A DNA stretch of 64,000 bases. Source: Sulfolobales archaeon (GTDB taxonomy: Archaea; Thermoproteota; Thermoprotei_A; Sulfolobales; NBVN01). A program made the position numbers and the translations under genes. Below, piece by piece: positions 6,646 through 23,097 of the stretch; the first letter of the stretch is position 1, and each line of letters begins with the position of its first letter. The notes beneath the pieces were generated by a model. That model had not been told where the DNA came from and did no database searches. It saw only the letters and a list, made by a program, of their open reading frames with translations. The stretch is from positions 374,075-438,074 of the forward strand of contig JAOAKA010000001.1 of the NCBI GenBank assembly GCA_026413885.1, written 5' to 3'.

Positions 6646-8283
6646 TTAAAGTACTTCAACATATTGAAATAGAATTGCGTACATATATAGAGGGTTGAAC
6701 GCCTCATCTCTAACTATAATATTTGGTCTAGTAACATATGTTTGAATCACAGTCCAGAGAGATATCGCAAATGCTTCTTGAAATATCATGTACTGTGCTT
6801 TTTCATATAGTCTGAGGGCTTCTTCGTAATCAACTCCTTCCAGCTCATAGGCGGTATCGAGAAGCGTGTCTAATTCCTCACTACAGTAACCAGACCAATT
6901 CCACTCCACCGAGTCGCAGCGGACTAAGTAGAGGTAGTCATATGGAGTTGAGTATGTTGGCCACCAGTCGTTTATGATTAAATGTGGTGCTTCTTCAGGA
7001 TTTCTCCAGACAGCTGCTCCATATTCTTTAACTACCTCCCACGGGTAGCTACGTATCGTTAGCTTGATGCCTAGCTTTAGAAGCTCCGACTTTAGTAACA
7101 TAGCGAATATCTCTTCTTCTTCATAACCTGTTGTTATAACTATTTCGATTTCTACTTCTCTACCTTCGAGACCGGCTTTCCGTAGATACTCTCTCGCAAG
7201 ATCTAGATCGTATTTAAACCTCAGTCCATCGATATATCCCGGGTACCTGTAAGGTATAATACCACTTCCCGAAATACCGTAGCCATATAGAGCTCTATCA
7301 ATCAACTCATCCCAAGGAATAGAGTGAAGAATAGCTAGTCTAAACTCTGTTGCACTCGTAGGCCATCTACGTGTATTGAACATCAAAATGTAGCTATAAT
7401 AAGTATATTGTCTTATCAGTTTAAAGCCTTCGCTGACTAGAGACCTTATTTCAGCTTTCGGAATAGCCATAGCTATGTGGATACTCCCACCTCTTAAGCC
7501 CACTACCTGTGTTACAGGATCACCGACAATCCTAATGACTACGAGGTCTGGAGCTCTAAGATTGCCTACTTTAGCCCAACCCCACCACTTCTCAAATTTT
7601 CTCAACCTGATTTCACTTACTGGGTTATAGTACTCTATGTAGTAAGGACCGCTTCCGAGACTCCGGCCACTCTCAAACCAGGACCTAATGGATTTATCTG
7701 TCAGGTCTTTAGCTCCTGAGTACTCAAGTACTCTAGGGCTATATATGTAGGCACCGTATGAAGACGAAGCTATTAAGTCTATCGGAGCTGGGTACTTAAG
7801 TTTAAATCCTACAGCAGTTTTGTTTATAGCAACTATATCTTCCACCGAGCTCCAAATGTAACCGGAACCTAGACCGGTTTCATCATATATAACTTTAGTT
7901 CTCAGTATGCTGAATCTAACTGCTTCTACAGTTAAAGGAGTACCGTCGTGAAACACTACGTCGTCTCTTAATTTAAAAACCCAGAACGTCTCGTTTATCT
8001 TAGTCCAGCTTACAGCAAGAGCTGGTGTGAATTGATTTGTTAGAGGATTATAGTAGAAGAGAGGTTCGTAAACTGAGCCTAGAACTACTAACCCAGTATC
8101 GAACTCTACACTAGGGTCAATCCCGGTTATAGCGTCTCTATAAGCATAAACAACCACTCTGATTTGAGGACCTATAAAGTATGTAAGTGAAGAAAATACA
8201 GATATACTTACCACTAAAAAAACTACGAGACCGGTTACTATGAGTAGCCTGCGGCCAAACCTCATATGATTCCACGAAATCAC
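6646..8283 (-). CDS. peptide ABC transporter substrate-binding protein (family 5)
   Basis: 545 aa with an N-terminal TM anchor and a family-5 SBP-like body. It is the first gene of the dpp-like operon. The true start may be the internal Met (MRFGRR). Confidence 0.8.
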   Translation of the reverse strand: MISWNHMRFGRRLLIVTGLVVFLVVSISVFSSLTYFIGPQIRVVVYAYRDAITGIDPSVEFDTGLVVLGSVYEPLFYYNPLTNQFTPALAVSWTKINETFWVFKLRDDVVFHDGTPLTVEAVRFSILRTKVIYDETGLGSGYIWSSVEDIVAINKTAVGFKLKYPAPIDLIASSSYGAYIYSPRVLEYSGAKDLTDKSIRSWFESGRSLGSGPYYIEYYNPVSEIRLRKFEKWWGWAKVGNLRAPDLVVIRIVGDPVTQVVGLRGGSIHIAMAIPKAEIRSLVSEGFKLIRQYTYYSYILMFNTRRWPTSATEFRLAILHSIPWDELIDRALYGYGISGSGIIPYRYPGYIDGLRFKYDLDLAREYLRKAGLEGREVEIEIVITTGYEEEEIFAMLLKSELLKLGIKLTIRSYPWEVVKEYGAAVWRNPEEAPHLIINDWWPTYSTPYDYLYLVRCDSVEWNWSGYCSEELDTLLDTAYELEGVDYEEALRLYEKAQYMIFQEAFAISLWTVIQTYVTRPNIIVRDEAFNPLYMYAILFQYVEVL

Positions 8284-8446
8284 TTAGATAGTGCTTAAAA
8301 ATCTTATAGTCTAATGTAGACACTCGAATTTCTCTAAAGACATGAAAGATATCTATCGACGTATTAAAAGAACTACAAAGTTTACATATGGTTACATAAT
8401 TAAATTGAAAACTATCTATCCACCGTAGCCGGTACTAGCTGTGTTG

Positions 8447-8587
8447 CTAAGCAACTTCTGCGTTAGGGATTTTAGAGCTCTTTACGCAGAACTCTACACA
8501 CTCACGAAAAGCTTCACCGGAAAAACCTATTTCGAGGCATTTTTCTCTACATACTCTAACAATGTGATCTCTGTTGTAGGAGTCCAC
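8447..8587 (-). CDS. candidate small Cys-rich protein (46 aa, GTG start)
   Basis: Manual translation gives VDSYNRDHIVRVCREKCLEIGFSGEAFRECVEFCVKSSKIPNAEVA, with 4 Cys. An AAGCGCTTTAGCAAATA BRE/TATA-like element lies about 30 nt upstream, compatible with a leaderless mRNA. It is below the ORF-track threshold. Confidence 0.25.
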   Translation of the reverse strand: MDSYNRDHIVRVCREKCLEIGFSGEAFRECVEFCVKSSKIPNAEVA

Positions 8588-8796
8588 AGTAATACTCTAC
8601 ACCGGTAAACTATTTGCTAAAGCGCTTAAGTAGAGCACTACATCTGCGAACTCTAATTTAACGCTGGTGGAGTTTAATCGCACTTTGATATTTTAATATT
8701 ATTGCGACCGAGTCTGAAGAAGTTGAAGAGGTAATGAACGACTAGCTAACACCCGGGAAAGAACTCGCAGCTAGCTCACTCTCAGACTCAGTAGTT

Positions 8797-9627
8797 TTAA
8801 CCCGTACTTAAGCTGTGTGTTTTTAGATTAGTTTTTCCTGTGTTAAGGTCAAGCTCTACTAATACAGCTGTTTGCTGCGGAATCTCACCTGCATCTGTAT
8901 CACTGAGATACGATAGTAGAGAAGACGAGAAAAACACTCTAGAGTTTTCAAACTCTCTCGTTAAAATCTTGTAGTATTTCACGGCTAGACTGTCTCGTGC
9001 TCTCTGCTCTGCTAGATAAAAGGTTATAGAAGAAACTGCTTTCTCTCCATTGAAGAGTGTCGTAAGTGTGTTCATAGCTGTTTTCGTATATTTAGCCGCA
9101 CTCTTTAGAGCTTCAGCAAGTTTTTCAACATCAACACTGTCTAAGTATCTATACACAAACTCTCCGAGATAATATGTATCTGTCGTATCGAGCAGCTTAG
9201 CTATTCCCAGCGTTCTAGATAGGCCGTCCGAATCTACGACACCGTTGTGCGCGATCCACATTTCAAAACCTTTCCAGCTGTAGTAGATAGGGTGGGTATT
9301 ACCAATCTTCACAGAACCTTCTGCGGACTTTCTTGAGTGAGCAATAACTACACCTACTCGAATTTCTCGTAAAACACTCTTAAGACTCTCAACTCCAGCG
9401 AAATCACGATATACTGGTGTAGTAGACCTATAGTGTGTAGATATTTTTTCCCCGCTATCTCGAATGCCAACTACTGCGTATCCCCAGCCATCACTGTGAT
9501 TCTCACATTTACTACGCTTCAAATAATCTGCTAATATAAGATCGCATTCACTAGCTTTAACAAATGAGTCAATATATAGAGATAGCTTGGCTAAGTTAGT
9601 GCCTACCAACATGAGCAGCCTACACAT
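8797..9627 (-). CDS. class II (Ntn) glutamine amidotransferase, YafJ/EgtC-like
   Basis: The internal start gives MCRLL..., with Cys2 as the Ntn nucleophile. The sequence also contains HSDGWG and HNG. The ORF track extends 4 codons further upstream, to 9639. Confidence 0.7.
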   Translation of the reverse strand: MCRLLMLVGTNLAKLSLYIDSFVKASECDLILADYLKRSKCENHSDGWGYAVVGIRDSGEKISTHYRSTTPVYRDFAGVESLKSVLREIRVGVVIAHSRKSAEGSVKIGNTHPIYYSWKGFEMWIAHNGVVDSDGLSRTLGIAKLLDTTDTYYLGEFVYRYLDSVDVEKLAEALKSAAKYTKTAMNTLTTLFNGEKAVSSITFYLAEQRARDSLAVKYYKILTREFENSRVFFSSSLLSYLSDTDAGEIPQQTAVLVELDLNTGKTNLKTHSLSTG

Positions 9628-13130: not shown

Positions 13131-14450
13131 ATGAAGCACTCAGTCATAATTAAAGACACTGTTCATAACTACATTAAAGTGTATGAGCACGAGAAATGTC
13201 TGGTAGACACCGCTCCACTTCAGAGACTTAGGAGAATTCTGCAGCTTCCCACGTCTCAGTACGTATATCCTTCAGCAACACACACTCGCTTCTCACACTC
13301 TCTCGGTGTAATGCACGTAGCTGGAGTTTTTGCTGAGAGTCTTTACTCTGAAGGAATTGAGGAATCTGAGAAGCTTAGACTCTACTTGATTTCCAGGCTG
13401 ATCGGTCTACTTCACGACATAGGTCACGGACCTTTCTCTCACACATTTGAAGACCACATCTTGATCAACTACGGATTAAATCATGAAGTACTCGGCAGTA
13501 AGATATTGAGAGAGAGCCCGGAGATTGTTAAATGCTTCGAAAAACACATAGAGAAAGAGTTCAACGTAACTCTCGAACAGATCTCAAAATCTATTGAAGC
13601 ACCAGTTATAGAAGCGTGGCCTCTTCACTCTAAGGTTGGTGAATACCGTGAGAGCTCTCTATACTACATAATCAAGGGTCCCTACAGTGCTGATATAGTT
13701 GATTACCTACTTAGAGATTCGTATCACACTGGAGCAAATTACGGACTAGGTCTCGACTGGACTAGATTAGCATATCATTCTAAAGCTGTAGGTGATACTA
13801 TAGCACTAGAGTATAAGGCTCGAGACGTCTTAGACCACCTGCTTTTCGCTAGGCTGTACATGTTTAAGACAGTATACTATCACAAAACTTCTAGAGCTTT
13901 CGATAAGGTTTTGGGGAATATACTTCAGAAAGTTGAACACATACTCAAGATACCGGAAGCCATCGAGAAACCTGATCTATATATCGAATTAGATGATGAC
14001 TACATTCTAGCTAACCCCGAAGTTAGAAAACTAGAAGAAACAAGGTATATACTACGTCGAGAGGTTCCCTATAAACTAGTCTACGAAATCATACAACCTC
14101 TAGAGAAGATTTCAGCTGCTTTAATAAAGATTGGGAAAAGTTTGATCGAGAAAATTATTGGGGAAGCCTTCATAGAGCTAACAGGTGTATCAGACCCTAC
14201 AGCTGTTTTTGTAGATAGTCCTAGACTACCGACAAATCCGATGTTTGAGGAAGCCGAAATAAATATCCTCAAACCCGACGGAAGCATTGTTAGAACACCA
14301 ATTAGAGAAACTATAGCTGGAATAATGCCTCACGAAGTAAGCTTCTTTCGGATATATCTTCATAGAGAGTATATAGAACACCTAGATAAATTAAGAACAC
14401 AAGTAGCTTCTCTATTCGGAAGCTCAGTAGAGCTACGCCCATTTTACTAA
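13131..14450 (+). CDS. HD-domain phosphohydrolase (COG1078, SAMHD1-like dNTPase family)
   Basis: Motifs TRFSHSLGV, LLHDIGHGPFSH, DYLLRDSYHTG and YYHKT. Confidence 0.85.
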   Translation: MKHSVIIKDTVHNYIKVYEHEKCLVDTAPLQRLRRILQLPTSQYVYPSATHTRFSHSLGVMHVAGVFAESLYSEGIEESEKLRLYLISRLIGLLHDIGHGPFSHTFEDHILINYGLNHEVLGSKILRESPEIVKCFEKHIEKEFNVTLEQISKSIEAPVIEAWPLHSKVGEYRESSLYYIIKGPYSADIVDYLLRDSYHTGANYGLGLDWTRLAYHSKAVGDTIALEYKARDVLDHLLFARLYMFKTVYYHKTSRAFDKVLGNILQKVEHILKIPEAIEKPDLYIELDDDYILANPEVRKLEETRYILRREVPYKLVYEIIQPLEKISAALIKIGKSLIEKIIGEAFIELTGVSDPTAVFVDSPRLPTNPMFEEAEINILKPDGSIVRTPIRETIAGIMPHEVSFFRIYLHREYIEHLDKLRTQVASLFGSSVELRPFY

Positions 14451-14458
14451 GTGGTAAG

Positions 14459-15532
14459 CTAACTAACGTCTTCAAAATCTATCTTCAGTTTTCTCGCTAT
14501 TTCGTAAGCTCTATATAGCTCCTCTCTAGTTAATCTACGAGCAATATCTGAATATTTATTTGAGTGTCTTAAGACTAAGTACTCAGGTCTATACTGCTCC
14601 ATAATATTGACTAGCGCCGTAGGACAGTCTATAGCTATCCACTCAAGTACAGGCGTAGTGCAGCAATCTATGTGGTTAGGCATTACTAAGTGTCTTATTA
14701 TTATCGGGTCTCTAGAGTCACAGACCATCTTGAGGTTTCTAGCCACCACATTGAAGTAGTTTTTAACTAGGGAGAGACGAGCCGCGCAGGAGTTATTACC
14801 GTACTTAAAGTCCGGTAGCCAGATATCGATTACATCGAGAAGTAGCTTCATAGCTTCTTCTGTAAGATACATGTTGCTATTCCAGAGCTGTGGTACATTA
14901 TTTCTCACGTATTTGAGGGAACTAAGTATAGTGTATATATTCGGTGTTGGTTCACCACCAACGTGATTTATGTTTCTAGCTCCTTCAACTCTTAAGTAGT
15001 CTTGAATTGAAGCTAGTTCTTCAGCAGTAACCCTGATACCACTAAACGGATATTCCTGAGATATATCGTGATTTTGACAGAAAACACATCTGAAATTACA
15101 TGAACCATAGAATATTGTTCCACTAGGCACGAGTGGGGGTTCCTCACCTACGTGTAGAAAGTAAGATGATACATATGTTTCACTAGTAAGACGACAAAAA
15201 CCTCTCGAACCCCCTAGCCTGTTGACCCCACATCTCCACTCACAGAAGTGGCACTTCTCCACGATCCTTCTAGCAATCTCGATTTTTACGTCTAGATAGC
15301 TTACATTAGGTTTCTCAAGCTTCGAGACCTCGGAGATGTTTAGCTTACCGTTTTTAGCTTGATTGAGTAGTTTTCTAAATTCTCTCGATAAGCTATCGTG
15401 AAGTTCCCACAGTTCTTCAAGGCCTTCTCCGCCTAGACCGTCTTTAACGCCTACATATCTAGCTAGAACAAATTTAGCGGGAACCTTATTTACCATGACG
15501 TCGTAGTACCATGAAAGTTTTTCTCTTACCAC
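14459..15532 (-). CDS. radical SAM protein, PflX-like (pyruvate formate-lyase activase homologue)
   Basis: CNFRCVFCQN radical-SAM cluster motif, plus an upstream Cys cluster CHFCEWRCGVNR...GFC. Confidence 0.8.
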   Translation of the reverse strand: MVREKLSWYYDVMVNKVPAKFVLARYVGVKDGLGGEGLEELWELHDSLSREFRKLLNQAKNGKLNISEVSKLEKPNVSYLDVKIEIARRIVEKCHFCEWRCGVNRLGGSRGFCRLTSETYVSSYFLHVGEEPPLVPSGTIFYGSCNFRCVFCQNHDISQEYPFSGIRVTAEELASIQDYLRVEGARNINHVGGEPTPNIYTILSSLKYVRNNVPQLWNSNMYLTEEAMKLLLDVIDIWLPDFKYGNNSCAARLSLVKNYFNVVARNLKMVCDSRDPIIIRHLVMPNHIDCCTTPVLEWIAIDCPTALVNIMEQYRPEYLVLRHSNKYSDIARRLTREELYRAYEIARKLKIDFEDVS

Positions 15533-15664: not shown

Positions 15665-16111
15665 ATGCCGGAGTGCTCTACTAGAGAATTTAAACCTGAA
15701 GACCTGCGGAGAGTTTGCGAGATAGAACTTAGATCGTTTTCACATCCCTATCCATGTCAACTCTTCCTTGTTTACTACTACCTCTTCCCAAAGCTCTTCT
15801 TAGTAGCTGAATGCGATAACTTAGTAGTTGGATACGCCGTAGGTGTTGTAGAAAATGGTGATAAAGGTCATCTGGCTTCAATAGCTGTCGACGAGAACTA
15901 TAGAGGTAGGGGTTTAGGTAGGGCACTTATTGAAGAATTTGAAGCTAGGATTAAAACTTTAGGAGTTTTCAAAGTGTATCTCGAGGTCTCCATAAGAAAC
16001 GAGGTAGCTATTTCCCTATATAGAAAACTTGGATATAGTGTGGTAGGACTTCTTCGCAAGTACTACCCGGACGGAGAAGATGCTTACTTAATGCTTAAAG
16101 AACTTAAGTAG
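15665..16111 (+). CDS. rimI: GNAT N-acetyltransferase, RimI/Ard1-type
   Basis: 148 aa with the acetyl-CoA motif RGRGLGRALI and a typical RimI length. The 3' end overlaps the convergent HD gene. Confidence 0.8.
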   Translation: MPECSTREFKPEDLRRVCEIELRSFSHPYPCQLFLVYYYLFPKLFLVAECDNLVVGYAVGVVENGDKGHLASIAVDENYRGRGLGRALIEEFEARIKTLGVFKVYLEVSIRNEVAISLYRKLGYSVVGLLRKYYPDGEDAYLMLKELK

Positions 16112-17341
16112 AGCCGCTCTTACTTCTTCCACGTATTCTGGAAGAACGTAGAGTCTGGTAAAGCAGACATGAGAAGGTATATACCTCACTATGCTTTCTT
16201 CTATATCTACTATCTTCTGTTCAACACCTTCTACCACCACTCTAGCCGGTCTCTCTAGTGTATAAACTGGAACTGCTTCAACGAAGATAGCAGCCTTAGG
16301 CGGAATTAATGAGGTTTCAGACTCTATAAAAGCTCTTAACTCACTAAATTTAGTAGCAATTTCTCTATAACTCCAACACATTCTAACGTCACTTACTACT
16401 GCTTTATAGCCTCTTCTATTCAGTAATCTAAATATCAGACTTTCAGCTTCTGGTGAAAGCACTTTTTTACTTAGAGCATAGTTCAGTAATCCCGATACTA
16501 GATAGTCGTCCCACAAGTAGTAGTAACCCTCTCTAATAGCATTCAAGATCCCTTGGGGACTTACATAAGGTTCTAACACATCTCTTAACTCCCCATACCT
16601 CAGTAATTCAGAGTATATGTTTCTCAAGAGGATTTGATATCCTGTAATTGTCTTATGGTAATAGACTGCTTTATACATGTGCAGTCTGGCTATATAGAAA
16701 CTTTCGAGAGCATTGAGCGCCTTGAGGGGAACCGTCATCCCAGAGCTACCCGGAGTTAGAAATAGTGCTAGCCTGTGAAGATCTATATTTCCATACGCGA
16801 CACCAGTGTGGTATGCATCTCTCGGAAGATAATCTAATCTATCCACATCTATATCGCTAGATATCATGTCGTTTAAAACACCCGAACTACTTCTACCTCT
16901 TAAAACTGAGATTACCTCGCTAAAACTAATTCCATACTTCTCCATGACCTCTCTCAACTCTGGATCGCTTGCTATGACTTGTTCGACAAGATCTCCTGAT
17001 TCAGTACCCCATAGCTCTGTAATTAGTGGTTCTAGTGAGTGCGAGTAAGGTGCGTGACCAATATCGTGGAGTAGAGCACATACTTTAACTAGAGAAACAT
17101 CGTCTCTACTTATATAGCCGCTCTCACTCAATCTCTGAGCAATTAATTCAGCTATATACATAGAGCCGAGTGTGTGAGAGAATCTAGTGTGTGTCGCACC
17201 TGGGTATACATACCATGCGAATGGAAGCTGTCTAATTCTTCTTAATCTCTGAAATACCTTAGTTGAAACTATGTCTCTAAAAACGCCGGCAAGCTTTATA
17301 TATCCATGGAGCTCGTCGTAAACATAAACAGTCTTCTCCAC
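16088..17341 (-). CDS. HD-domain phosphohydrolase (second COG1078 paralogue)
   Basis: TRFSHTLGS, LLHDIGHAPYSH, DYLPRDAYHTG and YYHKT. It is clearly paralogous to 13131..14450. Confidence 0.85.
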   Translation of the reverse strand: MEKTVYVYDELHGYIKLAGVFRDIVSTKVFQRLRRIRQLPFAWYVYPGATHTRFSHTLGSMYIAELIAQRLSESGYISRDDVSLVKVCALLHDIGHAPYSHSLEPLITELWGTESGDLVEQVIASDPELREVMEKYGISFSEVISVLRGRSSSGVLNDMISSDIDVDRLDYLPRDAYHTGVAYGNIDLHRLALFLTPGSSGMTVPLKALNALESFYIARLHMYKAVYYHKTITGYQILLRNIYSELLRYGELRDVLEPYVSPQGILNAIREGYYYLWDDYLVSGLLNYALSKKVLSPEAESLIFRLLNRRGYKAVVSDVRMCWSYREIATKFSELRAFIESETSLIPPKAAIFVEAVPVYTLERPARVVVEGVEQKIVDIEESIVRYIPSHVCFTRLYVLPEYVEEVRAALLKFFKH

Positions 17342-17931
17342 AGTGTTAACCCAGAATATCTCACCGGAAACCTATATAGTCATCTAAATGCTGTACACCT
17401 GCCGACACACAGTTTAGAACTTAGCTGTAGAGAACGCTATTCAGCTATATTCTACAGTTGTGAAGCACTGTGATGACTCTCACAGATCGAGATGAGAGTT
17501 AGTGTCGGTCACAGCTAATTAACTAGCTGACACAGCTCAAACTAGTGGTAAGATGGTAGTAAGGTACATCAGAAAACGAATCGTAGATTCACTTAAATAA
17601 ATCGAAATCAGATATTGCCATGAGACTACACTGCAGATGTGAAAAGATTATAACACACTTGAAACACAGTAGTGAGTCAGCAATAGATATCGCAAGTAAA
17701 GAGTTTCTGCCGAAGTAGATGAGTGTTCGCGTTTAAGATGATTCTCAACTAAGAATTCGAAATCTCAATATGATGCGTAGTATACAATTTCACACTTAGA
17801 TTAAAGATGTGGAACAGTGCTTCATTACTGTAGCTGATCCAGCTATCTCAATAAATTATGTGGTGAAGTTCCGAAAAAATAAATAAGTATGAGAGGTTAT
17901 TCTTTTCAAACTGCCCCTCTAGAACTCGACA

Positions 17932-18609
17932 CTATGTTTCCAATAATTCTCTGAGAATTCTTGCCAGCAGCGTTCTTGGTATTATTACTGGTCTCTTGGA
18001 GACTGCTGCCACCACTTTCTTAGCTTCAGAAGTAAAGCCTATGCAGTCTAAAACAATTAGATCACATTCCCTCAATTCTTCTGCGGCCTTTGCGAGAGCA
18101 TCTATGGTTTCTGAGTACGGTGATGTACTAACAACTTTAATTTCTCTTGCCGCTCTACTCCATTTCTTTATAGTTAGATCTATTTGTGTAGGATTAGGTA
18201 CTATTATACCCAGGTTAGTAACCTTAAGAGATTCAACAACTTTAAGTAGGAGGTCTGAAGGTTCTATTAGAAGCTTTTTTGACTTCAGCTCCGGGAACTC
18301 ACCTGTGCATAGCAGTCCCAGCAAATCTACTTCTGGTTCTAGCCTATCTATACATTTCTGCATCAGTGAGAGTATCCGTTCTCGCGACACCATGACTTCA
18401 GAACCGTCTCTGAGCCTAGTCACAAGTATATATTCTCCACTTCTAGGGGCTAGTGAGGCTATTTCCTCCTTACTTAGTCTGTCTAGCGCACCACACTCAA
18501 CTACCTCGACATCAGTACTCTCTAAGATCTTTCTAATCTCAGGCACTACATCTACTCTAGGTGATTGACCTATAGTAATCAGTCCAACTCTCTTCAAGGA
18601 TTTCACCAA
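17932..18609 (-). CDS. AroM family protein
   Basis: N-terminal GLITIGQSPRVD motif and a roughly 225-aa length, as in the AroM family (function unknown). Confidence 0.65.
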   Translation of the reverse strand: MVKSLKRVGLITIGQSPRVDVVPEIRKILESTDVEVVECGALDRLSKEEIASLAPRSGEYILVTRLRDGSEVMVSRERILSLMQKCIDRLEPEVDLLGLLCTGEFPELKSKKLLIEPSDLLLKVVESLKVTNLGIIVPNPTQIDLTIKKWSRAAREIKVVSTSPYSETIDALAKAAEELRECDLIVLDCIGFTSEAKKVVAAVSKRPVIIPRTLLARILRELLET

Positions 18610-19676
18610 AGCTTTTTACCTACTACAACTTCGACCTGCTTTATTATCTCGGGATCTTTAACACCGGCGCCCAGCGGCACGAGATCTTTCGGGACCATCA
18701 TCAATACTACTTTATCACCTATCTTAATCTCCGCAGAGGTCAGTGGGAGAGATGTCTCTGTATTTAGTGTAACTATTAAATCTGGGAATGTAGCAAGCCT
18801 AGCACCCCCTATCTCCTCTAGAGTCATGTACTCGTTCCAGAACAACACCTCGAAATATTTTGACTCACCTCTAATGACTATTCTCCCGATGTCATACCCA
18901 CCGCGTGTTTCAAGAAAAACAGACTCTACAGTGCCTTTATCTACTACCTGCCCACCACCTAAGTACTCGATCACGCTAAATGCGATAGCTTCTGCGTCTC
19001 CATAGTGCTTCTGCATAATTTTACCGACTTCCATAGCTTTACTTAATCCACCAACTGCCGCATTTTCTTTCAAATATTCTGGGTTGACGGGATTACGAGT
19101 TACAGCAACCATGCCACCTGCTTGAACTGAGGCTTCTCTAACAAGTCTATCTACTCTTGCTAGAGATCCAGCTGCTACTAGCTCGACGTAGGTTCCCGCT
19201 TCTCTACTCCCACCTACAGCTGCTTGAATCGATAAATAGTCCTTAACTCTATGTAAACCCATAGACCCCATTACACCAGTCGGGTGTGCTCTACCGTCAG
19301 CCGGCGCATCGACTACTGGAATGTTCAGAACCGCTGCCGGAATCCAGCCGTTGGCTGTAGACGCACCTCCATTCTCAGAAGATATAAAACCACTTATACA
19401 GACCTTAGCACGATCCCTCAAGAGCTCCGCAGACCTCACCATATGAGTAGGCTTTACGTACTTCTCCTTAGCCGCTGGAGCTCCAACTAATGACGCAGTA
19501 ACTACTAAACTCTCCGATGGAAGCTCGTCTAAGTCAACTATATAGAGATCTCCCAACTCTACAGCGAGTTTTGCGGTCATCAACCCTGTCTTAATATCAC
19601 CCCCACCTCCTCCACCGAAAAACGATCCTCCAAGTATTGCTGCTTCAGCTACTTTCTCATCTATCTTTATCTTCAT
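18603..19676 (-). CDS. DUF917-like protein (hydantoinase-associated family)
   Basis: 357 aa with an N-terminal glycine run ILGGSFFGGGGGGD and a two-domain layout. The assignment is from motif memory only. Confidence 0.5.
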   Translation of the reverse strand: MKIKIDEKVAEAAILGGSFFGGGGGGDIKTGLMTAKLAVELGDLYIVDLDELPSESLVVTASLVGAPAAKEKYVKPTHMVRSAELLRDRAKVCISGFISSENGGASTANGWIPAAVLNIPVVDAPADGRAHPTGVMGSMGLHRVKDYLSIQAAVGGSREAGTYVELVAAGSLARVDRLVREASVQAGGMVAVTRNPVNPEYLKENAAVGGLSKAMEVGKIMQKHYGDAEAIAFSVIEYLGGGQVVDKGTVESVFLETRGGYDIGRIVIRGESKYFEVLFWNEYMTLEEIGGARLATFPDLIVTLNTETSLPLTSAEIKIGDKVVLMMVPKDLVPLGAGVKDPEIIKQVEVVVGKKLW

Positions 19677-20350
19677 TTACCACCACCTAATGCTTTCTGC
19701 CTCAACATACCTAGAGTTACAGCACCCGCAGCTATTACTGGGTCAACTACTGGGACTCCAGCTAATCTTTCAGCAACTCTTGAGAATCCAATCGTAGAAT
19801 ACCCTGTGCAGGCTAGTAAGATCACATCAACATCGCGTTTTAAGAGCTCCTCTAAAATCTTTCTAGCTGCCTCTATACCCCAACCAGTCATTAAGTCGAG
19901 AGTATTTCTCACTCCTTCAGGTTTCGCTTCAGCAACTAGGTGTTTCCCTAGAATATCTCTGACGACCTCCGGAGTTTCCTCAGCTAGATTTAACACTCCA
20001 ACTCTATCTCCATAGGTTAGTGCGAGTGAAGCTGCTGCGGAACCGGCACCTACAACAGGAATTCTCAACAGCTTTCTAGATTCTCTAACAGCCGGATCAG
20101 CTGCGCAGCTGACTATGACTGCTTCAACCCCTTCTCTCTCGAGTTCCTTAGCTAACTTAATTATCTTAGGTTTAGCTACCTCTTCAGATTCGCGGTCATA
20201 GATTCCCATCGGCTGATCTTCAATGCTCCTACTGATAACTCTCAACTCCGGGAAAGCCGACTCTACGATCTTTCCGTGAAGATTGAGCAGTTCTTCATCT
20301 CTAATAGTTATGACTCTTATCAACCCGATAACGTGCCTCATAGAGTTCAC
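19673..20350 (-). CDS. Asp/Glu/hydantoin racemase family protein
   Basis: 225 aa with two conserved Cys-containing segments (VIVSCAADP and ILLACTGYS), typical of this racemase family. Confidence 0.7.
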   Translation of the reverse strand: MNSMRHVIGLIRVITIRDEELLNLHGKIVESAFPELRVISRSIEDQPMGIYDRESEEVAKPKIIKLAKELEREGVEAVIVSCAADPAVRESRKLLRIPVVGAGSAAASLALTYGDRVGVLNLAEETPEVVRDILGKHLVAEAKPEGVRNTLDLMTGWGIEAARKILEELLKRDVDVILLACTGYSTIGFSRVAERLAGVPVVDPVIAAGAVTLGMLRQKALGGGK

Positions 20351-21297
20351 TACTTCGGAATATTCTTTCTAAATAGGTCAGCAACAGGTCCGTGGATTCT
20401 GACAATAGTTTCCCACTCGTCAGGATCGTAGAATCTCGCCCTACCCATAGTGAAATCCTTAGCGACCTCTACCACGAATCTAGTTGCTTGCTCGAGAGCT
20501 ACAAAGTTAGTGATTCCAGTTCCCGAGCCGGGTAGAGCCATTCTAGCAGTTATAGCTACTCCAACTACTGGCGCCTTTGTGTATAGCCAGGGCTGCATCA
20601 TGCTGTTTATGTGGTATACCGGGGTAGAATATGGAAGTATGTCCTGCATTGTTATTGGTACCACAACCGGTGGTTCACCTGTAACTCTAACATATATATC
20701 GGTAAGGTCTGGACTGACCCTCAGTATCCAGCCCTCCTTAACGGTGGGAGTTATCGCGAAGCCCGTGTGCTTGATCACCCAGTTAGCTTTAGTAGCATCA
20801 ACTGAAAGAACTGAGTCCATCTCATCTCTAACTTCCTTCCTAAGCAGTGTGAAGATATCCACGGGAGAGTCCATCATGGGAGCGGGCTTGTAAGGCCTCG
20901 TTGGAGCGACTGGACACACGTGTGTAGTAATAATGACATCACCTGGGAGTACGTCACCTCGGGTCTTCATCTCAGCAATCTTATACGCAGTCGCGAGAGC
21001 TACGATGGCTCCATCAGCGTCTGAAACCATACCTATATACGCTGGTCTAGCTCCAATACCTCCCAACCTACCCACGACTCCCAGCGTAGGTGAATAACCT
21101 CCCGAGTTCTTGCCTATTCTTCCAGGAACAGTTATGGTTACAAAGTCTGTAGAACCTTTATCACCGTGAATAGTTTCTACTTCGATTTCCATATCCGTGA
21201 AGCCCTTATCGATAAAGAATTTTCTAACGATCTTGCCATTAACCCCGGGATGTTCGAGGAGATCCACTACCTCTAATATATGTTTTAAGGTAGACAT
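20350..21297 (-). CDS. DUF1177 family protein
   Basis: 315 aa, the first gene of a four-gene overlapping operon. The family assignment is from length and sequence memory. Confidence 0.5.
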   Translation of the reverse strand: MSTLKHILEVVDLLEHPGVNGKIVRKFFIDKGFTDMEIEVETIHGDKGSTDFVTITVPGRIGKNSGGYSPTLGVVGRLGGIGARPAYIGMVSDADGAIVALATAYKIAEMKTRGDVLPGDVIITTHVCPVAPTRPYKPAPMMDSPVDIFTLLRKEVRDEMDSVLSVDATKANWVIKHTGFAITPTVKEGWILRVSPDLTDIYVRVTGEPPVVVPITMQDILPYSTPVYHINSMMQPWLYTKAPVVGVAITARMALPGSGTGITNFVALEQATRFVVEVAKDFTMGRARFYDPDEWETIVRIHGPVADLFRKNIPK

Positions 21298-21474
21298 ATA
21301 TGACCACGATCGAAAATATCCTACTATATTTAAAAATCTTGTTTATTTAGTCTAGCGACTTTGCAAAAATTTCGAAATAAGTAAATCCATACTACTCTAC
21401 TTTTAATGAAGATATATGAAAACACATAATATGTTTATATACTAGTCCAAGTAATTCACTTTGGTGATATAATA

Positions 21475-23097
21475 ATGACTAAATCTTCCTCCGACTACCA
21501 CCCTAGGTTATATGAACCCATCGTCTTGGCTATGGGGCTCGTTCTAGCACTCTTTGGCGCTATTATCGGTATGGAGTTGATCTGTAGAGTGGGTATAAAT
21601 CCCAACACATCCATCATTGGGGCTCTCATAGCTATAACGTTTTCAGCTATACCGGTTCAAATTGCCCGAGCTATGCGCAATGTGCACAGAATCAACTTAA
21701 TGCAGACAGTGATATCAGGCGCCACTTTTCAAGCCGGGAACGTGTTCTTACTTACAATTGCAGTACCCTACCTATTAGGACTTACTGGAGGTGCTTACTT
21801 TACTGGTGTTATTATAGGTGTCCTCATCGCTGGTTTTGTAGATATACTTCTATCATATTGGATATTTGACTCTCCATTCTATCCTGCGAGGAACCCGTGG
21901 CCTCCCGGTATAGCAACAGCTGAAGCTATAAGGGCGGCTCTGAGTAGGGGTAAGAGGGCACTTATCCTACTCTACGGCATGATTTTCGGTGGAGCACTAA
22001 CTTACCTCGGCTATCCAGGTGATGTTGTAGGTATAACCCTCATAACTCAGATCGTAGCTATAACTTCGTTCGGTATTGGTCTCGTTATGAGGGCTTACGG
22101 TCCGGTATTAGTGGGTATCGATTTCTACAAGATATACGCTCCTCAAGGTATAATGGTTGGTGCTGGATTAGCAGCACTAATACAGTTCATCTTACTGTAC
22201 TTAAGAGTTAGAGGAAAGCAAGATGTTCAGCCGGTGAAAGGATCGTCCTCTAGTCTGTCGCCGGTGCTTGTTAATGCTGATGAGGCTTTGAGGAGACTAG
22301 CTATAGCTTTAGGTATATTTGTAGCTGGTGCTCTAGTTACCGCCTTAGTAACAGGTATCGGCGGAATGATGGATCCAGCAATGCTCCTCTTGTGGGTCAT
22401 CTACTTCGGTTTTCAAGCTTGGTTTACTACGTTAATCTGCGCTCTCTCAGGTATGTACGCAGGTTGGTTCCCCGCTTTTGCTACAGCACTAGCTGCTTTA
22501 GTAATAAGCCTCGTCTTCGGCTTCCCACCACTAGCAGCAGGTATCGGTGTAGCTTATGTTGCGGCGACTGGACCGGGGATGGCTGACCTTTCCTACGACT
22601 TAAAGACCGGCTGGATTCTTCGAGGTGAGGGGAGAGATCCAGAGTTTGAGAAAATAGGGAGAAAGTGGCAGTTCTACGCAAAAATACTCTCATTAGCTAT
22701 CTCCCTCACAATGATTGCTGTGTTCTACAGAGCCTACTTCGCCGGACTCAATCTATTTCCACCAGCAGCTAGAACTCTTGCTGCTACAGCTAAAGCAGTA
22801 GCAGACCCCGAGCTAGCGAGATGGCTACTCACTTGGGCGCCGCTAGGCTTTGTTCTACAACTACTAGGAGGACCTGAGAGACAGATCGGGATACTACTGG
22901 CTACAGGACTTATGATATCTAACCCACCAGCAGGTATAGCAGTTTTAGTGACAGTAGCTGCTAGACTAGCATTAATAAAAACTTTAGGAGTTGAGAAACT
23001 GCGAGATGTGTTCTATGTGGGTGGAGCAGGTGCCGTAGGAGGCTCAGCAATAGTGTCGTTTATAGTTTATACACTAAGAGCGTACCTTAGAATATAG
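21475..23097 (+). CDS. OPT-family oligopeptide transporter
   Basis: 540 aa with more than 12 TM helices and an OPT-like DLSYDLKTGWIL segment. It is divergent from the DUF1177 operon. Confidence 0.7.
   Translation: MTKSSSDYHPRLYEPIVLAMGLVLALFGAIIGMELICRVGINPNTSIIGALIAITFSAIPVQIARAMRNVHRINLMQTVISGATFQAGNVFLLTIAVPYLLGLTGGAYFTGVIIGVLIAGFVDILLSYWIFDSPFYPARNPWPPGIATAEAIRAALSRGKRALILLYGMIFGGALTYLGYPGDVVGITLITQIVAITSFGIGLVMRAYGPVLVGIDFYKIYAPQGIMVGAGLAALIQFILLYLRVRGKQDVQPVKGSSSSLSPVLVNADEALRRLAIALGIFVAGALVTALVTGIGGMMDPAMLLLWVIYFGFQAWFTTLICALSGMYAGWFPAFATALAALVISLVFGFPPLAAGIGVAYVAATGPGMADLSYDLKTGWILRGEGRDPEFEKIGRKWQFYAKILSLAISLTMIAVFYRAYFAGLNLFPPAARTLAATAKAVADPELARWLLTWAPLGFVLQLLGGPERQIGILLATGLMISNPPAGIAVLVTVAARLALIKTLGVEKLRDVFYVGGAGAVGGSAIVSFIVYTLRAYLRI

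Follow-up and report, generated by a model that had tools for sequence, protein, structure and literature searches.

Organisation of the five-gene cassette

The window analysed here is a stretch of 64,000 nucleotides (nt) from a Sulfolobales archaeon (contig JAOAKA010000001.1, positions 374,075 to 438,074), and its positions 17932-23097 hold a five-gene cassette, a candidate uptake-and-salvage module built around the protein families DUF1177 and AroM. AroM has been a named gene since 1986 and is still an orphan. Four of the genes are on the minus strand. The DUF1177 gene (20350-21297, 315 amino acids) is the first gene of this operon and is followed by an Asp/Glu/hydantoin racemase-family gene (19673-20350, 225 amino acids), a gene of the DUF917 family, now renamed S-Me-THD-like (18603-19676, 357 amino acids), and, as last gene, an AroM-family gene (17932-18609, 225 amino acids). 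A transporter gene of the OPT family (21475-23097, 540 amino acids) lies on the plus strand and diverges from the operon. A first-pass annotation had assigned the AroM, DUF917, racemase, DUF1177 and OPT families; in our Pfam searches all five proteins scored above the gathering scores.

Direct reading of the junctions confirmed that the minus-strand genes overlap. At the DUF1177/racemase junction (CCG AAG TAG/TG) the stop codon TAG and the GTG start share a G, corresponding to an overlap of 1 nt. The racemase/DUF917 junction reads AAATGA and has a 4-nt ATGA overlap, and at the DUF917/AroM junction (TTGGTGA) the overlap measures 7 nt when counted from TTG as start codon and 4 nt should translation begin at GTG. 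Overlaps of 7, 4 and 1 nt indicate that the four genes form one transcription unit, as had been claimed before. A sigma-70/terminator scan, which is uninformative for an archaeon, found no internal terminators in the operon. Scans for Rfam families, tRNAs and terminators over positions 16-24 kb of the window gave no matches.

The operon and the OPT gene face each other across an AT-rich divergent control region of 177 base pairs (bp; 21298-21474, not assigned to a strand). Its sequence was read directly, and the length and position given for this spacer in the first-pass annotation were correct. By eye, a TATA-like motif (TTTTTAAATATA, 21326-21337, minus strand) was recognised 29-40 nt upstream of the ATG of DUF1177, and another (TTTATATA, 21434-21441, plus strand) 34-41 nt upstream of the ATG of the OPT gene. 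The positions of these boxes would fit short or absent leaders. A 10-bp palindrome (ATTTCGAAAT, also noted by eye) is located at 21369-21378. When the divergent promoter regions of eight relatives were aligned, only the TATA-like box on the OPT side looked conserved, and no shared operator was found in this alignment.

Families, folds and conserved residues of the encoded proteins

The racemase-family protein matched Pfam PF01177 with 89.3 bits (gathering score 31). Among the PDB chains a close orthologue was found, the "hypothetical hydantoin racemase" 2eq5 of Pyrococcus horikoshii (E 1.8e-84), together with weaker matches to a putative hydantoin racemase (3qvj, E 3e-7) and an allantoin racemase (5lfd, E 2e-4). 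All 26 racemase-family sequences compared have C82 and C181, which represent the two-thiol pattern of the superfamily. The protein is therefore predicted from its sequence to be a two-thiol racemase or epimerase. A glutamate or aspartate racemase proper was considered and rejected: the NCBIfam models for these enzymes gave 25-26 bits, and their cut-offs are 93-328.

The AroM-family protein covers the complete profile of Pfam PF07302 (positions 1-219 of 219) with 256.5 bits (gathering score 23.8). It also passes NCBIfam NF007788, an equivalog model built around AroM of Escherichia coli (229.4 bits, cut-off 198). In E. coli K-12, aroM is part of the aroL-yaiA-aroM operon and is not known to have DUF1177, DUF917, racemase or OPT partners. 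A sequence search of AroM against PDB chains gave no meaningful match. Alignment of the AroM and racemase profiles with hhalign resulted in a probability of 94.7% (E 6e-8) and placed C101 of AroM (in LLCTGEF) on C82 of the racemase, and C189 (in LDCIGF) on C181. All 37 AroM sequences compared have C101, and at least 90% of them have C189. Considering this cysteine-on-cysteine alignment and the conservation of both residues, the operon encodes two paralogous two-thiol proteins with a racemase fold.

The DUF1177 protein matched Pfam PF06675 over its full length (398.5 bits, gathering score 25) and is 50-86% identical to bacterial and archaeal members of the family; archaeal and Enterobacterales proteins share at least 50% identity. 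DUF1177 ranks with the better conserved of the orphan families met in this analysis. The family is small, with only about 410 clusters at 50% identity in an exhaustive search of 1.84 billion protein representatives. Its AF2 model has a predicted local distance difference test score (pLDDT) of 81 and a predicted template-modelling score of 0.87. In Foldseek searches of the PDB, M17 leucyl aminopeptidases were the best matches to this model (E 8e-9, template-modelling score (TM) about 0.55), and the M28 aminopeptidase of Streptomyces griseus and the catalytic domain of the M20 enzyme DapE were also found. Over M17, M28 and M20 the matches ranged from E 8e-9 to 3e-7, with TM values of about 0.5-0.57 and 9-13% identity. 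As judged from the model, DUF1177 thus shares the alpha/beta catalytic-domain fold of Zn-dependent exopeptidases, at fold level only. A divergent M20 peptidase was rejected as an identity for the protein, as hhalign against neighbouring M20 proteins gave a probability of 0.2%.

Among 58 DUF1177 sequences, S92, D93, D95 and G96 (in the motif S-D-A-D-G of the window protein), D167, D219, H229 and E277 are invariant, and H126 is conserved in at least 90%. D93/D95, H126, D167, H229 and E277 follow an M28-like order; neither the canonical first His nor the Glu-Glu pair is present. These residues suggest a putative metal site and a possible role of DUF1177 as a metallohydrolase. Three segments of the model (residues 79-92, 132-142 and 256-262) have pLDDT values below 50 and are among the most conserved of the family. 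They contain the conserved residues G79, G80, A83, R84 and P85; P132, P138 and M141; and G257, S258 and G261. The segments may be active-site loops that are ordered only in an oligomer or together with AroM.

The DUF917 protein matched both domains of its family in Pfam, S-Me-THD_N (PF06032, 76 bits) and S-Me-THD_C (PF20906, 93.6 bits; gathering score 27). Its AF2 model (pLDDT 89.8) retrieved in Foldseek a single structure, the uncharacterised 2o3i (TM 0.76, E 1.5e-17), and nothing else with E below 1e-3; the sequence search against PDB chains likewise returned 2o3i alone. In NCBIfam the family includes named thiohydantoin desulfurases. The models for thiohydantoin and S-methyl thiohydantoin desulfurases (NF058529, NF058532) describe the same two-domain family and match the window protein over its full length. 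These desulfurases belong to ergothioneine catabolism. The genomic context of the window protein is in contrast peptide-related, and genes for an ergothionase or a thiourocanate hydratase were not encountered. The window protein is 100% identical to an NCBI protein from a metagenome-assembled Sulfolobales archaeon.

Distribution and gene neighbourhoods

A scan of a genome collection with a DUF1177 alignment confirmed at least 562 loci, of which the 80 best were compared together with three plasmid loci (83 loci). Neighbours were counted within 7 kb of DUF1177 by tblastn and clustering of open reading frames (ORFs). The labels M29-like, nitroreductase, M20, PepE and Amidohydro_3 come from Pfam scans of cluster representatives; for the high-GC Streptomyces loci, whose genes are mislabelled by a simple ORF caller, tblastn and Pfam were used.

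AroM was the most frequent of the cassette partners (44 of the 83 loci), followed by DUF917 (33), the racemase (27) and OPT (18). An ATPase of Opp/Dpp-type ATP-binding cassette (ABC) transporters was present at 21 loci, and any peptide transporter at 37. Among the peptidases, M29-like aminopeptidases were found at 18/83 loci, M20 peptidases at 16/83 and PepE (family S51) at 12/83. IclR regulators (8 loci), nitroreductases (5) and Amidohydro_3 hydrolases (4) were less common. All five families of the window occur together at nine of the 83 loci. Seven of these are archaeal and have the exact gene order of the window, so that the arrangement OPT< DUF1177> Race> DUF917> AroM> recurs in independent genomes; the two bacterial loci belong to Tissierella (L051) and Paenibacillus (L067). 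All five families are likewise clustered in P. horikoshii OT3 and in Thermoanaerobacter, in the latter with the order PucR-Race-DUF917-DUF1177-M29-like-x-OPT-AroM. The prediction that the genes co-occur outside this genome thus held, and the synteny across domains excludes a chance adjacency. The closest DUF1177 loci are from metagenome-assembled genomes of Sulfolobales, Desulfurococcales, Zestosphaera and Ignisphaera. OPT orthologues with 56-87% identity stand divergently beside DUF1177 at eight loci (L001, L003-L007, L013, L026), and in P. horikoshii and Thermoanaerobacter the OPT gene is inside the operon.

In the stable core of the cluster, AroM follows DUF1177. DUF917 and the racemase join this core often but independently, as either is also found without the other, and the further variable partners are OPT or Opp/Dpp ABC transporters, M29-like, M20 or PepE peptidases and, in sister archaea, a pair of cyclodipeptide oxidase (CDO) genes. 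A natural DUF1177-AroM fusion (P0125, 532 amino acids) is a classic sign of joint function or complex formation of the two proteins. In two further proteins (P0156, P0157; 733 amino acids), a PucR-type helix-turn-helix and a GGDEF-like domain are fused to DUF1177; these could be merged gene calls. A PucR regulator adjoins the cluster in Thermoanaerobacter as well.

In Enterobacterales the cluster has the form OPT-DUF1177-AroM-PepE-racemase; in Klebsiella, Erwinia and Serratia the PepE gene immediately follows AroM. The copy of Klebsiella pneumoniae (L081, NZ_CP057460.1, 174946-180353; IclR-OPT-DUF1177-AroM-PepE-racemase) is located on a conjugative plasmid and flanked by IS66, IS110 and IS5 transposases, which points to horizontal mobility of the module. 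A megablast search of 5,426 complete E. coli genomes gave no match to the Klebsiella-type cassette. Other plasmid forms are IclR-peptide ABC+ArgE/DapE-DUF1177-AroM in Paenibacillus and peptide ABC-DUF917-DUF1177-AroM-aminopeptidase...racemase-aspartoacylase-like in Salinigranum. The cassette is not confined to a peptide-fermenting hyperthermophile, as it occurs in mesophilic Bacillota and Enterobacterales; the presence of the cluster in mesophiles shows the function to be a general one.

At four loci of sister archaea (L002, L004, L008, L013) an M29-like gene extends the operon beyond AroM. A CDO pair, consisting of a nitroreductase gene that overlaps a PF19585/DUF6092 gene, was found at the 3′ end of the cassette in L002 (14383-15181), L013 (14374-15181) and L049 (12810-13644). 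The organisms bearing these CDOA/CDOB genes are presumably anaerobic archaea (L002, L013) and an Anaerolineae bacterium (L049). An Amidohydro_3 hydrolase of 527 amino acids, which we take to be D-aminoacylase-like from its N-terminal motifs, lies directly beside OPT or DUF1177 at four loci (L001, region 7972-9555; L014, L036, L048) that are among the closest relatives of the window. The 64-kb window itself holds no Amidohydro_3 relatives, as judged by tblastn. A different setting was seen in Vulcanisaeta (L024, 9297-14861) and Caldivirga (L025), where AroM-DUF1177 stands beside a Hydant_A_N/Hydantoinase_A gene and an NCS1 permease of the cytosine/purine/uracil/thiamine/allantoin family. A distant DUF917 (24% identity) is nearby, and the usual peptide transporter is absent.

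The cassette is an orthologue of a recognised cluster that is already present in the genome of P. horikoshii OT3 (BA000001.2, about 957-963 kb), and as a genomic feature it is ordinary. The same five families occur there in the order Lrp | Race-DUF917-DUF1177-AroM-NicX/M29-OPT-NicX-like-AsnC, the racemase being the protein of known structure 2eq5, and the DUF917 proteins of the two organisms are 62% identical. The P. horikoshii operon differs in gene order, in the OPT gene, which is within the operon there and divergent here, and in its additional genes (two M29/NicX-like genes, flanking Lrp/AsnC regulators, an SSF symporter and an M20 peptidase). Clusters with CDO genes and no cyclodipeptide synthase (CDPS) were reported to be enriched in PF01177, PF06032, PF07302, OPT/ABC peptide transporters and peptidases; CDOA and CDOB are defined by PF00881 and PF19585 in that study, and DUF1177 is not mentioned (Nat Commun 2024;15:3574, PMC11055893). 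The cassette is therefore not a new find: the P. horikoshii operon and the structure of its racemase were already available, and that study had noted the co-enrichment of three of its families with OPT/ABC transporters and peptidases. The window shares the enriched families with these clusters; it lacks the CDO genes, whereas the sister loci L002 and L013 have both CDOA and CDOB. Across our loci DUF1177 anchors the cluster and is its most conserved component; CDO genes are present in only about five of 83. Literature searches with the family names, the Pfam accessions, thiohydantoin desulfurase and Pyrococcus hydantoin racemase yielded this study (PMC11055893) as the single relevant paper and, in the searchable literature, no biochemical or genetic characterisation of the cluster.

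In the window, the ORF list shows housekeeping genes on the flanks of the cassette (HD-domain, radical SAM, GNAT, enolase, RNA methyltransferase, aIF2-alpha), which makes it a self-contained five-gene island. Directly downstream of AroM, 590 bp (17342-17931) contain no ORF of at least 60 amino acids, no Rfam match and no tRNA. This is the position of the M29-like and CDO genes in sister loci, and tblastn found no relics of M29-like, CDOA or CDOB genes in the gap. Two paralogous HD-domain ORFs with a similar N-terminal motif (13131-14450, plus strand; 16088-17341, minus strand) bracket a radical-SAM-like ORF (14459-15532, minus strand) and a GNAT-like ORF (15665-16111, plus strand); these labels were read from the sequences and, unlike the five cassette families, do not come from Pfam.

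A proposed salvage function and its alternatives

We propose, with a probability of roughly 0.45, that the cassette is a widespread, horizontally spread module for uptake and salvage of a dipeptide-sized, peptide-derived compound whose C-alpha stereochemistry is equilibrated before hydrolysis. OPT would import the compound, in which an activated C-alpha centre would then be inverted or brought to equilibrium by AroM and the hydantoin-racemase-like protein. The hydrolase-like DUF917 protein and DUF1177, with its Zn-exopeptidase-like fold and its proposed physical coupling to AroM, to which it is fused in some organisms, would then act, and ordinary L-amino acids or dipeptides would be released for fermentation. 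The proposal builds on the gene structure, the protein families, the conserved cysteine pairs, the fold classes and the synteny with peptide transporters and peptidases across domains; which way OPT transports, what each enzyme catalyses, that racemase and hydrolase work as a pair, and the substrate are our inferences. More generally, we propose as the recurrent logic of these clusters that a transporter for dipeptide-sized compounds (OPT, Dpp/Opp ABC or NCS1) is combined with racemase-fold and hydrolase-like proteins and with ordinary peptidases. The first-pass annotation had suggested that a small peptide or cyclic amide is imported and then converted by ring opening or racemisation. The peptide transporters and peptidases around the core at most loci, the two two-thiol proteins, the named thiohydantoin desulfurases in the DUF917 family and the CDO pair of sister archaea fit this outline; no substrate is established.

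As candidate substrates we favour cyclic amides, that is 2,5-diketopiperazines or hydantoin-like five-membered rings. This preference is based on the link to CDO, the hydantoin-type relatives of the racemase, the tie between DUF917 and thiohydantoins, the NCS1 and Hydantoinase_A context, and the need for dipeptidases after ring opening. To our knowledge, diketopiperazines are the only characterised substrates of CDO. Both ring types have racemisable alpha-carbon centres. On heating, diketopiperazines form spontaneously from peptides and epimerise, and a salvage route would therefore be useful to a thermophile. A bolder version of the proposal appears improbable to us: the cluster would be the still-missing general route for degradation of cyclic dipeptides (2,5-diketopiperazines), conserved, and exchanged horizontally, from hyperthermophilic archaea to enterobacteria. 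In this version diketopiperazines or dipeptides would be epimerised by the racemase-like protein and by AroM, DUF917 and/or DUF1177 would be the first hydrolases dedicated to ring opening and to dipeptides, and DUF1177-AroM would form a physically coupled epimerase-hydrolase machine.

Several observations weigh against the salvage proposal. The transporter is the weakest of the five family calls: the OPT protein matched Pfam PF03169 with 52.2 bits (E 5.5e-14, gathering score 25.8), the match is weak and partial with its best stretch confined to residues 18-229 of 540, and neither NCBIfam nor the PDB gave a match. The protein is a presumed importer, and the direction of transport is an assumption. 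The DUF917 protein reached 310 bits with the thiohydantoin desulfurase model of NCBIfam (cut-off 440) and 262 bits with the S-methyl thiohydantoin desulfurase model (cut-off 450). Scores this far below both cut-offs mark it as a paralogue and not as one of these enzymes. Foldseek did not match its fold to known hydantoinases or amidases. A role of DUF917 as ring opener consequently has no support from structure, and the published proposal of a hydantoinase-like structure for DUF917 proteins (PMC11055893) is not borne out by this search, as 2o3i alone was found. For DUF1177, sequence and profile searches against PDB chains returned no relevant match, and our literature searches found no demonstrated activity for any member of the DUF1177 or AroM families. 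The association of the families is also not obligatory. At 20 of the 47 DUF1177 loci with full flanks none of the four partner families is present (mostly Streptomyces, with PepE and M20 flanking), which indicates that DUF1177 is not strictly tied to them, and the 83 loci behind the neighbour counts are a best-scoring subset of at least 562 matches, not a random sample. Finally, tblastn, for which the CDOA and CDOB proteins of sister loci served as CDO queries, detected no CDOA, CDOB, M29-like, M20 or PepE relatives in the 64-kb window.

Some of the same evidence can be read differently. The peptide-type transporters, the recurrent M20, M29-like and Amidohydro_3 neighbours, and PepE, an Asp-X dipeptidase that follows AroM in the three enterobacterial genera and stands beside DUF1177 in Streptomyces, would also suit catabolism of linear peptides with D- or iso-linked residues, such as peptidoglycan stem fragments or heat- and age-damaged peptides with D-Asp and isoAsp. 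DUF1177 would then act as a dipeptidase of an unusual kind, and released D-Asp, D-Glu, other D-amino acids or dipeptides with D-residues would be turned into the L-form by AroM and the racemase. Membership of the racemase in the Asp/Glu racemase Pfam family and a gene of the aspartoacylase/desuccinylase family adjoining the racemase in Salinigranum agree with this. However, the linear-peptide pathway has no role for DUF917 or the CDO pair and leaves the NCS1 and Hydantoinase_A context in Thermoproteales unexplained, and the racemase is far below the Asp/Glu racemase cut-offs, with hydantoin and allantoin racemases as its closest solved relatives. We regard it as unlikely. These solved relatives would fit a substrate that is a hydantoin or ureide ring of non-peptide origin (allantoin-like, purine- or histidine-derived). 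The cassette would in that case be an unorthodox "hyu" system with the racemase, DUF917 as a ring-modifying hydrolase and DUF1177 as an analogue of a carbamoylase. Named DUF917 family members act on thiohydantoins, PucR-type regulators are located beside DUF1177 or fused with it, NCS1 permease and Hydantoinase_A genes stand beside AroM-DUF1177 in L024 and L025, and DUF1177 resembles the M20 fold class, to which L-carbamoylases belong. Against this, most loci combine peptide transporters with true peptidases and not with nucleobase or ureide genes, genes of the allantoicase, ureidoglycolate or carbamoylase type did not turn up, DUF917 or the racemase is often missing beside the DUF1177-AroM core, and the DUF917 fold is unlike known hydantoinases. 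We regard catabolism of such rings as unlikely, too.

A classical hyu cluster consists of an NCS1 permease, a hydantoin racemase, a hydantoinase and an N-carbamoyl-amino-acid amidohydrolase. The cassette resembles it in combining a racemase, stereospecific hydrolases and a transporter, in its two-Cys racemase of the same Pfam family and in a hydrolase with Zn-exopeptidase fold. It differs by having neither an amidohydrolase-type or HyuA/HyuB hydantoinase nor an M20 carbamoylase, by OPT in place of NCS1, and by DUF917 and DUF1177, which have no sequence relationship with the hyu enzymes. NCS1 and Hydantoinase_A genes were found only at the distant loci L024 and L025, and the cassette was rejected as a classical hyu cluster. 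Nor does it represent a thiohydantoin-desulfurase system or a peptidase family that could be recognised. The association with CDO homologues would also allow for a cassette that makes or tailors a natural product of modified cyclic-dipeptide or hydantoin type and exports it through OPT, and secondary-metabolite biosynthesis was named as one possibility for the CDO clusters (PMC11055893). Neither the window nor the inspected loci contain a CDPS, a nonribosomal peptide synthetase or another scaffold-forming gene, and many loci have, instead of OPT, ABC systems of the uptake type that include substrate-binding proteins. The lack of a scaffold synthase and the uptake-type transporters make a biosynthetic role highly unlikely. 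The cassette has peptidases and regulators of the IclR, Lrp and PucR types as neighbours, which we regard as a set typical of catabolic clusters, and the Klebsiella copy is an IS-flanked accessory island.

What our analysis adds to the known cluster is DUF1177 as its anchor, the conserved and sometimes fused pair of DUF1177 and AroM, the alignment of the AroM cysteines with the catalytic pair of the racemase, and the Zn-exopeptidase-like fold of DUF1177. By this, two orphan families become a concrete candidate for an enzyme pair in a context of peptide uptake and peptidases. If the substrates are diketopiperazines or hydantoin-like rings, the cassette would fill a missing step in the recycling of peptide carbon, would provide thermostable racemase/hydrolase pairs for dynamic kinetic resolution, and would explain the many CDO clusters that lack a CDPS. 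The cassette in the window is a good and concrete lead for assigning functions to AroM and DUF1177.

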